DNA from: Hormiphora californensis
Taxonomy: Eukaryota; Animalia; Ctenophora
Assembly (NCBI GenBank): GCA_020137815.1
Contig: CM035362.1
Span: forward strand, 4,278,001 to 4,342,000
DNA: 64,000 nt
Direction of reading: 5' to 3'
This document shows positions 1,209-62,915 of the stretch, piece by piece; the first letter of the stretch is position 1, and each line of letters starts with the position of its first letter. The notes beneath the pieces were generated by a model. It did not search any database and was not told the origin of the DNA. It worked only from the letters and a program-made list of their open reading frames with translations. Both the position numbers and the translations under genes were made by a program.

Positions 1209-4200
1209 CCCGGTAATATTGAGTGAATCCCCATCATCTCCACTTTCTCGTGGAGTCCGTGGATCACTACCCAAGTCGAGGGAGAACAAATCTCGGGAGA
1301 GAGAGTTTTCAGAGTGTCCAGATGATAGGGACGCTATCTCAGGATTCATCTGGGCCTGGAGGGGAGGAATATGGGTAAGTTGGCCCTGGGAAAGGAAGGA
1401 TGGGTTAGATATGTGGTGGAGATGGGTTAGTTAGGTGAGAGAGATGGGATAGCTGGGAATAGGTCTTGGGATGGAGAGAGTTGGGTGAGCTGAAAAGGTT
1501 TCAACTGGCTCTCATCTCTCTCACCCTCTTAATAAAGTTTAACTCCCATTGGATCATTTCCCATCCTTACCCAACCGGTAAGTCATAGATCACACCTCTC
1601 CAGATTTATTGGGGCGAGATAGATGAGAGAGTAGGAGGCCCGGCTATCTAGATGGGGAACCAAAAAGGAAATCGAGTCCCCCAGAGATTACGTAACACCC
1701 CACAATAGACAGAATTTAGTGAAGGGGGGCATGTCTCTTTCTCATCAGTGGGGGTATCAAATCCCCTTTGTTTTAAAAAATATATTGAGCTGGCAGCTTT
1801 ACCAATAATACTCCCCCTCTCTCATATTAGTTAATGTAACAATCTCTCTTTTTCTCTCATTAGTTATTGTAACAATCTCTCCCCCTCATCACCACGTCTC
1901 TTTGTGTTGTGATTGACAGATGCTCTAAATCACCGCTCTTGTTCGTCTCGTGTAGACAATACTATACTCCGCTCCTGTCGCCGCCCCTTTGACCATTTGG
2001 CATCCTCGAACTTATAGAGCTGTACTATTTATACAGGTTACTACTCATATTCTTTGATTTGTTAGGGAATACTCAGCACATTTTCCCTAAGCAATGTTGT
2101 CTCTCATTCTCTGTATTCTTCTCTCCTCCTGCGTCTCGGCAGGGAAGAAAAAGGGCTTCGCTTCAGCGTTCAATTCCTGGAAACTCCAATTCGGGGAATT
2201 AACTGCCAACCGACCAGGAGCCAGTGCCTCCGAGCTACATAGGAACTTTGCACGCAACCTCCACTTTATTAATACCCACAAGACTGAAGGGTTTACTTTG
2301 GCCCTGAATGAATTTGCTGATCTAGACATCTCATCCCTTCTCTCACCCCTGAATATCACAAAAGAGGAAGAAAAGGACCCAAAACCACGGTTCTCGAGCC
2401 CCTTTCTTCTGTTTTCTCCCTCGGCTGTGAGCTATAAAGCTACCTACGCTCTCTCCAGACCTCGGGAGCTTGATCTGAGAACGTGCTCTCATTCGTCATG
2501 GGCTTTTGCAGGTAGAGGTTCTATCGCACTAGTTAATGTAAGAATCTCTCTTTTCTCTCGCACTAGTTATTCTAATAATTTATCTTTTCTCTCTCGCTAG
2601 GTAATACAAGAATCTCTCTTTTCTCCCACATTAGTTAGTTTACAAATCTCTCTAATTCATTCTTTTTGCAGTAACATCAGCACTAGAAGCAGCGTACTGG
2701 AAGAAAACTGGGGAGGTGAGGCTGTTCAGTGAGCAAGGAGTTGGTGGATTGTGCGTGTGGCAGAGGATGCAGGTAGTATAGTTCTTTCCCTCGCACTAGT
2801 TAATGTAACAATCTTTCTTTTGCTCTCTCCTTAGTTAATGTAACAATCTCACTTTATGCTAAACGGTTGTTAGGGCAGCTTGGGACCGAAATTACTTCCC
2901 CAGTGATGATTTTACCCTTTCCCCAGTGACGACTGTGTGGACAGCGCACTAAACTATCTTGCTGTAAGGGACAGTATCTCCGACACTAGGGATTACACTA
3001 TACGGGGGCAAGGTAAGATTCTCTCTTGCAGTACCCTGCACTTCCCCACTTGTGAACCAGATCTAGTAAATTTGATACGGTGTGGATCTTTTAGCTTCTG
3101 TATTTTACTACCCTGTGTACTACCAGTCACCCACTAACTCTAATTCCAAGGTTCGATCCTGTACCCCCCTCTCTCTCTCTCTCTTAGTTCAATACACAAA
3201 CTCTCTCCAAGGTTTGATCCTGTACCCCCCTCTCTCTCTCTCTTAGTTAACCAAACAAACTCTCTCCAAGGTTCGATCGTGTACCCGTGGACAAAACATC
3301 CTCGCGTCAAATACAGATGTTATCCCAGCACTCACAGGAAGTGGGTCAACTACCCTGCTGGATTGGGTGGGAAACAAGGGTCCTGTTATAGCTCCCATGT
3401 TCGCAAGCCGATCATTCTTTTTCTTCAAACATGGTGAACAGGGGTGGGGGTCTCTCTCGTTATAGTTAATGTAACAATCTCTCTTTTGTTCTCTTTAGTA
3501 ATCGTACCAATCTCTCTTTTGCTCTCTTTAGTAAATGTGACAATCTCTCTTTTACTCTGTTTAGTAACCGTACCAATCTCTCTTCTACTCTGTTTAGTAA
3601 GTGTTACAATCTCTCTTTAATAAATGTGCCAATCTCTCTTCTACTCTCTTTAATAAATCTAACAATCTCTCTTCTCCAGGGATCTACAACAAAGTAGGTA
3701 TCCAGTGTGAAAAAGACAAGTCGCCAAACTATTGGATAACTGTGGTGGGGTATGCTTCAGATCACTGGTTAATCCGGGGTGTTCTCGGCCCCAACTGGGG
3801 TGAGGGGGGTTACATGAGGTTGGTATCCTTACTTATTGTAACAATCTCTCTTTAGCTCTTTGTAGTTAATGTAACAATCTCCCTTTAGCTCTTTCTCTCT
3901 TTCTCTAGTTAATGTAACAATCTCTCTTTAGCTCTTTCTCTCTCTCTCTAGTTAATGTAACAATCTCTCTGTTGCTCTCTCCTTAGCTAATGTAACAATC
4001 TCTCTTTTTAGGCTGGGAAGGTACTTCGCAGGAGAGTGTAGTTTGTATTTGAAATTGAGGATGCTAAGACTGGGAGATAAGAGCAGTGTGTCAGGGATGA
4101 GTGAATGGGATGCTGTACCCCGTCCTGATAGGTAACTCTCTCCTTAGTTAATGTAACAATCTCTCTGCTGCTCTCTCTTTAGATAATGTAACAATCTCTC

Positions 4201-62915: not shown

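Follow-up and report, generated by a model that had tools for sequence, protein, structure and literature searches.

We found five intact genes and a transposon-like reading frame enclosed by the exons of a furry (FRY/MOR2-PAG1) gene on the minus strand, within 1209..62915 of the window, that is, of the whole 64,000-nt stretch of Hormiphora californensis DNA that was analyzed. The layout is real: all five introns named as hosts, three in furry and two in an enclosed soluble guanylyl cyclase (sGC)-like gene, start with GT and end with AG, and all five are in phase, where a phase match has a chance of 1/3 per intron before any choice of sites. Based on exon chaining and open reading frames, the coding extents of all six units lie wholly inside modelled host introns. 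The splice sites of the named introns score within the range of the window's other sites, as judged with a matrix that included the named sites, and the exon scan was crude and trained on the window itself. A sequence-only reading of this DNA had counted six nested genes, three of them doubly nested; the safe tally is five nested genes, two of them doubly nested, plus one doubtful unit, the "ORF1-chimera" of that reading, which may be a retroelement relic. The locus is thus likely to be an elaborate member of the gene-inside-gene layout published for ctenophores, with ordinary cis-splicing. Published work is cited below by PMC identifier. A literature search, which did not extend to the Hormiphora supplementary nested-gene lists, found no paper on ctenophore furry or on the present locus, and an Rfam search gave 0 matches.

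The furry gene (33 modelled exons, minus strand) extends past both ends of the window. The best protein match of exon 11988-12164 is furry of Bolinopsis microptera (E 6.9e-23, 86% over 59 aa), and tblastn with the Bolinopsis protein found colinear exons from 22896 to 1275, so that the orthologous C-terminal half represented by the Bolinopsis models X1-X4 (XP_063692694-7) is colinear with 28 exon regions of the window. The Pfam domains MOR2-PAG1_mid, MOR2-PAG1_C and Fry_C follow in order on the Bolinopsis orthologue (Fry_C at 25.5 bits, just below its cut-off of 25.9), and exon 21540-21644 of the window itself matches MOR2-PAG1_mid (E 0.0048). Stop-free chains of 11, 3, 6 and 6 exons, reaching 1209, account for 26 of the 33 modelled exons. 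The 11-exon chain, from 62915 to 18851, encodes 427 aa with zero stops and spans introns 55969-61977 and 22905-55820; its residues 212-427 align with Bolinopsis residues 3-208 (60%, E 2e-79). A 6-exon chain spans 1356-7039, again without a stop. The three gene-bearing introns are the long ones; the other 29 of the 32 modelled furry introns do not exceed 2,366 nt (median about 250). The earlier proposal that furry exons join in phase over these three introns was thus borne out, including phase 1 for the longest, and a plus-strand gene was found in each of them, as had been proposed: the papain-like gene in 1356-7039, sGC in 22905-55820 and the secreted-protein gene in 55969-61977.

The join over the first of these introns (1356..7039, minus strand; 5,684 nt, phase 0, GT-AG) is continuous in the Bolinopsis furry protein, where the peptides flanking the intron adjoin at residues about 1173/1174; the junction from 7040 to 1355, one of those that the sequence-only reading had singled out for checking, is therefore supported at the protein level. 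The intron hosts a papain-like gene (2094..6655, plus strand) with a Pfam I29 match (E 3.7e-5) and, towards the C-terminus, a likeness to beta/gamma-crystallin (Crystall_3, E 0.057). A 3-exon and a 6-exon chain of this gene are stop-free, and an exon near 3271-3433 lies outside the chains. The predicted protein carries what we take to be a Ser at the position of the catalytic Cys, and the catalytic His is presumably missing; it is probably catalytically dead. The frame appears to run on into the crystallin-resembling region, so a fusion of a dead protease with a crystallin is possible.

The second intron (55969..61977, minus strand; 6,009 nt, phase 0, GT-AG) hosts a gene at 57041..61581 (plus strand) that consists of a stop-free exon chain with an uncertain frame in the last exon. 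Its hydrophobic N-terminus suggests that the product is probably secreted, and it could not be assigned to a family, with no Pfam match below E 0.09. As an independent indicator of splicing, a 190-nt contig from another sample (run X10, record 12) joins 55913-55967 directly to 61978-62105; of the 11 differences from the window listed for it, 10 are synonymous when read in the furry frame. Splicing of the 6-kb intron is accordingly very probable. The contig is ~85-90% identical to the window and thus comes from a diverged lineage; that X10 is RNA is a guess, no run on record as RNA being listed. Sample reads were placed on 43500-63400 only, and the blank in X10 depth on most sGC and ENPP-family exons carries no weight. 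In three short relatives of the exon that ends at 61978, similarity stops at one and the same point, consistent with a common intron position. The first half of the secreted-protein gene occurs in a tandem duplicate (56479-58103 versus 58943-60582, 92.6% over 1,657 nt) whose second copy starts in noisy sequence. The duplicate within 56479-60582, with its noisy middle, is probably an assembly artefact, and the 6-kb intron is therefore probably inflated, leaving the nesting unaffected.

The third plus-strand gene is an H-NOX sGC-like gene (23653..54564; 20 modelled exons), itself the host of the second nesting level. Single exons match HNOB (E 0.045), HNOBA (E 0.002) and Guanylate_cyc (E 1.3e-6 and 4.5e-12) in that order, with HNOB and HNOBA below the curated cut-offs. 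Stop-free chains of 5 and 15 exons cross both host introns, 24718..39207 (plus strand; 14,490 nt, phase 0) and 44274..49855 (plus strand; 5,582 nt, phase 2), and from their GT-AG ends and the continuous frame we infer that both are spliced. The exon scan gave no linking exon between 39309 and 43046, a gap that lies outside both host introns. In the encoded protein, by eye, the haem His and the YxSxR motif seem absent or altered and the C-terminal catalytic positions seem altered. Searches for relatives gave little: a word-based protein search with exon 1 (limit 2,000 residues, and thus a weak blank) returned nothing, and a PDB search with an sGC exon returned only a chance hit. No evident orthologue was seen among the published ctenophore sGC sequences compared (PMC10073611 Table 2; up to 10 of 12 places for Pleurobrachia, 8/8 for Hormiphora and 7/7 for sGC3). 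The sGC gene also has a GC-AG intron after 51281. Two further candidate genes were rejected in this region. At 44400-44850, where a contig of run X7 lies, a candidate seventh nested gene was set aside when the 8 listed variants were not mainly synonymous in any of the six frames; 44410-44678 is a non-coding stretch of the sGC intron under that contig, whose run carries another organism label. An extra gene in 37300-43000 was unsupported by exon scan or Pfam; a 93-codon ORF at 42434-42712 (plus strand), which lies in an sGC intron and is without a Pfam match, is possibly a transposon fragment.

The sequence-only reading had placed three minus-strand genes in the two sGC introns, and this held for two of them. 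The gene for a Na/K-ATPase beta subunit (ATP1B; 31446..37228, minus strand), in intron 24718..39207, has 6 coding exons and a stop-free frame of 286 aa (Pfam Na_K-ATPase, E 2.2e-11). The gene for an ENPP-family phosphodiesterase (46423..49410, minus strand), in intron 44274..49855, has 8 exons encoding 428 aa with hydrophobic ends (Pfam Phosphodiest, E 1.5e-14); all its introns are GT-AG, zero stops interrupt the frame, and all three listed exon-7 variants are synonymous. Judged by their intact multi-exon frames and Pfam matches, ATP1B and ENPP would both qualify as genes. The third unit, by contrast, is a single 552-codon ORF (25326..26984, minus strand) in the same intron as ATP1B, delineated from the ORF and from Atlas leads, with a C-terminal region like that of L1 ORF1. 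It has no Pfam match below E 0.075. Its Atlas leads are weak (0.87-0.92) and include clusters with Transposase_22 (20% of members) and Baculo_FP_2nd (36%), and the N-terminus has no Atlas hit at 0.9 or above. No LINE ORF2 (endonuclease/reverse-transcriptase) follows the ORF; ~600 nt free of long ORFs separate it from the next sGC exon. Since a Pfam match is lacking and the likeness to L1 ORF1-type proteins is weak, the unit may be a retroelement relic, or it may be a gene.

Strand flips with nesting level, as the sequence-only reading had noticed, and each of the six units is antisense to its immediate host. With even odds for the two orientations this has p = 0.016, and with the antisense bias of 71.3% reported for flies (PMC5174743) ~0.13; for the five sure genes the corresponding values are 0.03 and 0.18. 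Nested pairs in Drosophila are 71-73% antisense (PMC5174743, PMC3890989); the bias is weaker in another count, where 727 of 1,651 Drosophila nested genes share the direction of the host (PMC3890989), and in mammals, where the numbers of the two orientations are described as "broadly similar" (PMC11694760). The alternation is tidy, and a special cause is needless. Because nested genes tend to be antisense to their immediate host, second-level genes are automatically sense to furry, and it is this orientation that bears on how the largest furry intron could be removed.

This intron (22905..55820, minus strand; 32,916 nt, phase 1, GT-AG) would host sGC together with the three doubly nested units. 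Its donor (5.1) and acceptor (8.6) score within the range of other sites in the window, and exon 55968-55821 offers the right phase for a join to 22904, which is why we infer a splice here. The first furry exon after it (22792..22904, minus strand) matches the very start of the Bolinopsis RefSeq isoforms X1-X3, with 22 of 35 positions identical against Bolinopsis residues 3-36 (E 4e-11) and the Bolinopsis Met at the first full codon of the exon. Thus, in three of the four Bolinopsis isoforms the start coincides exactly with this exon, that of X4 lies further downstream, and all four lack everything upstream of the position of the 33-kb intron. Conversely, the furry exon upstream of the intron has no match in the Bolinopsis furry protein. 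Against 1.84 billion representatives, it gave 4 hits: one was an unrelated repeat protein, and the other three were short read-throughs of a single exon. A long ctenophore furry with the upstream exon was not among these representatives, where a shorter cluster representative can mask a long protein. A word-based protein search with this exon (limit 2,000 residues) found nothing, a weak result because of that limit and because the search missed an 88-aa, 80%-identical relative. Our searches found no transcript or protein across 55821/22904, and no locus came up in two metagenome scans with Bolinopsis furry. The junction may correspond to a giant intron that has been conserved, to an internal start or to a point of trans-splicing.

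Several observations favor a coding join at this position. The first in-frame ATG of exon 22904-22792 is codon 34 of 37, and the codons before it are conserved with Bolinopsis; they are therefore translated here, and an upstream coding exon is needed. The break at the 33-kb intron falls inside MOR2-PAG1_mid, such that the C-terminal half matches only positions 1001-1101 of the 1113 in the profile. In flies, Fry was examined as one intact protein (PMC2868802). In the other direction, 22905-23700 allows phase-1 micro-exons with an ATG and a weak donor to be modelled, so that a local furry start is possible. The sGC ATG lies head-to-head with furry, 749 nt from the furry acceptor, and ctenophores trans-splice leaders, which at least 56% of the long reads from Hormiphora carry (PMC8527503); the geometry and the leaders together keep an internal start or an operon-like split in play. 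A candidate alternative terminal furry exon at 55396-55698 was unsupported by exon scan or Pfam; the 101-codon open stretch in question lies on the minus strand just inside the 33-kb intron.

One way to accommodate the Bolinopsis start is that both forms are made: a full-length, cis-spliced furry alongside a short C-terminal one, which would be leader-capped at 22904 and transcribed from an internal promoter shared head-to-head with sGC. The isoform starts, the abundance of leaders and the head-to-head geometry all fit this arrangement, but the Bolinopsis start ATG is not conserved in the window and codon 34, the ATG available here, aligns to Ile in Bolinopsis; moreover, annotation pipelines treat nested loci badly (PMC10282587), which alone could explain a split Bolinopsis model. 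We consider it quite unlikely that both forms are made. Alternatively, furry could be split, either as a minus-strand operon, in which ENPP and then ATP1B would lie between the 5' and 3' halves of furry and leader trans-splicing would separate the products, or as two halves joined by gene-to-gene trans-splicing. Besides the start of the Bolinopsis models, the presence of an AG 18-19 nt before the ATG of both ATP1B and ENPP would suit such a split, as would the finding that read-through of donor 55821 reaches a stop after 8 codons. Against this, the conserved codons upstream of the first ATG and the phase match favor a coding join, neither AATAAA nor ATTAAA occurs within 700 nt past 55821, and the break would cut a Pfam domain. 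A split furry is therefore very unlikely. In a bolder version, furry would be interrupted at one shared point in two ctenophore lineages that are distant from each other; an operon-like transcript would run through ENPP and ATP1B, leader trans-splicing at 22904 would free a C-terminal Furry, rivalling or replacing cis-splicing, and the nested genes would act as a switch between full-length and half Furry. This, too, we regard as unlikely.

A different kind of explanation would be that the 23-55 kb block was mis-assembled into furry, in which case the 33-kb intron would be an artefact, as would the double nesting with respect to furry. The window has noisy stretches resembling gap-fill (about 16380-16990, 32660-33300 and 58100-59430) in addition to the probable false duplication at the secreted-protein gene, repeats flank the right end of the block, and among the contigs listed none bridges 54841-55462. 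However, contigs of other samples lie on unique pieces near the right edge (X5 on 52999-53822 and 54301-54841, X1 on 55462-55843), and the break of the Bolinopsis model at the exon that follows the 33-kb intron is what an old, genuine discontinuity would fit. The nesting of ATP1B and ENPP in sGC is, in any case, independent of the furry edges. Mis-assembly of the block is very unlikely.

We consider it likely, then, that furry is one long gene, that ordinary cis-splicing takes out its introns of 5.7, 6 and 33 kb, and that the nested genes have promoters of their own. If the 33-kb intron is cis-spliced, it follows from the layout that the furry pre-mRNA passes sense-oriented exons and poly(A) signals, as had been claimed, although the counts need adjustment. 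The intron contains 15 sense-strand coding exons (6 + 8 + 1; about 16 in the earlier count), 10 of them internal. Of three poly(A) sites said to need skipping, poly(A)-type hexamers were found within 700 nt after the stops of ENPP (46267) and ATP1B (31372, 31232, 31101), but none within 700 nt after the ORF1-like stop; the sense strand of the intron has 25 AATAAA in all. The further claim, that the locus implies an unexplained mechanism of splicing or termination, is not supported, given that doubly nested and parallel nested genes and the splicing problem they pose are in print (PMC8527503), and that Drosophila hosts were shown to ignore nested poly(A) signals (PMC3890989). In Drosophila, a host ignores the poly(A) signal of its nested gene in a manner dependent on the 5' splice site, and deleting that site restores the signal (PMC3890989). 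This fly result covers the silencing of poly(A) signals and not the skipping of ten internal exons. On the latter point, the Hormiphora paper remarks that complex transcription or splicing is required for parallel nested genes (PMC8527503); the bypass of ~ten strong internal exons is a known open question, shared beyond the present locus.

Under cis-splicing, the nested genes would be transcribed from their own promoters, while the furry polymerase would read through ENPP, ATP1B and the ORF1-like frame. As long as the furry donor at 55821 is engaged, the nested poly(A) signals would go unused, as in the fly nested pairs. The small nested introns might be spliced inside the large intron, or the nested exons might be skipped; separation by cell type would be another possible way to bypass the internal exons. 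Leaky joins would be degraded or would yield rare chimeras; those from donor 55821 (phase 1) to the phase-1 acceptors of ENPP exon 8 (46577) and of ATP1B exons 2, 3 and 6 would keep the reading frame.

Both the class of nested and doubly nested genes and the splicing puzzle are already in print for this species, with 2,357 nested and 484 doubly nested genes reported (PMC8527503). As in the present locus, one host there can hold several nested genes, some of them doubly nested; the host in Figure 4A of that paper has four, two doubly nested, whereas the present locus has five or six units, two or three doubly nested, a 33-kb intron and a strict antisense relationship at each level. Russian-doll and same-strand nested genes of Drosophila are alike in placing a gene in a gene in a gene, in being mostly antisense, and in the experimentally shown read-through of poly(A) signals (PMC5174743, PMC3890989). 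They differ in that only a handful of such cases exist and that same-strand nested genes are mostly intronless (71.5%), whereas the sense-oriented genes here have 6 and 8 exons; unlike in the fly cases, the host animal here also performs spliced-leader trans-splicing. As a layout, the locus is one more vivid example of a published class. It is also a test case, with two multi-exon sense-strand genes in one intron of an animal that trans-splices leaders, and long-read RNA here would show directly how nested exons, poly(A) sites and leader acceptors are bypassed by a host transcript. The nesting site would be old if the break in the Bolinopsis models corresponds to this giant intron; if the break is a real internal start, a conserved NDR-kinase scaffold would be made in halves.

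Lastly, we observed repeats and duplicates throughout the window. A dispersed element of ~110 nt, with copies 93-97% identical, occurs in introns at every nesting level (4667-4778, 21681-21792, 23914-23971, 50635-50745, 60537-60625 and 60794-60905), and it splits a duplicated sGC exon start near 50600. Partial exon duplicates are also seen at 6933-6986, 34782-34847, 49617 and 49722. Tandem arrays whose unit is a copied exon end with its splice site are found at 5353-6200, 10390-11170, 14000-15500, 34540-37100 and 53850-54170; they concern the papain-like, furry, ATP1B and sGC genes and yield many decoy donors and acceptors.
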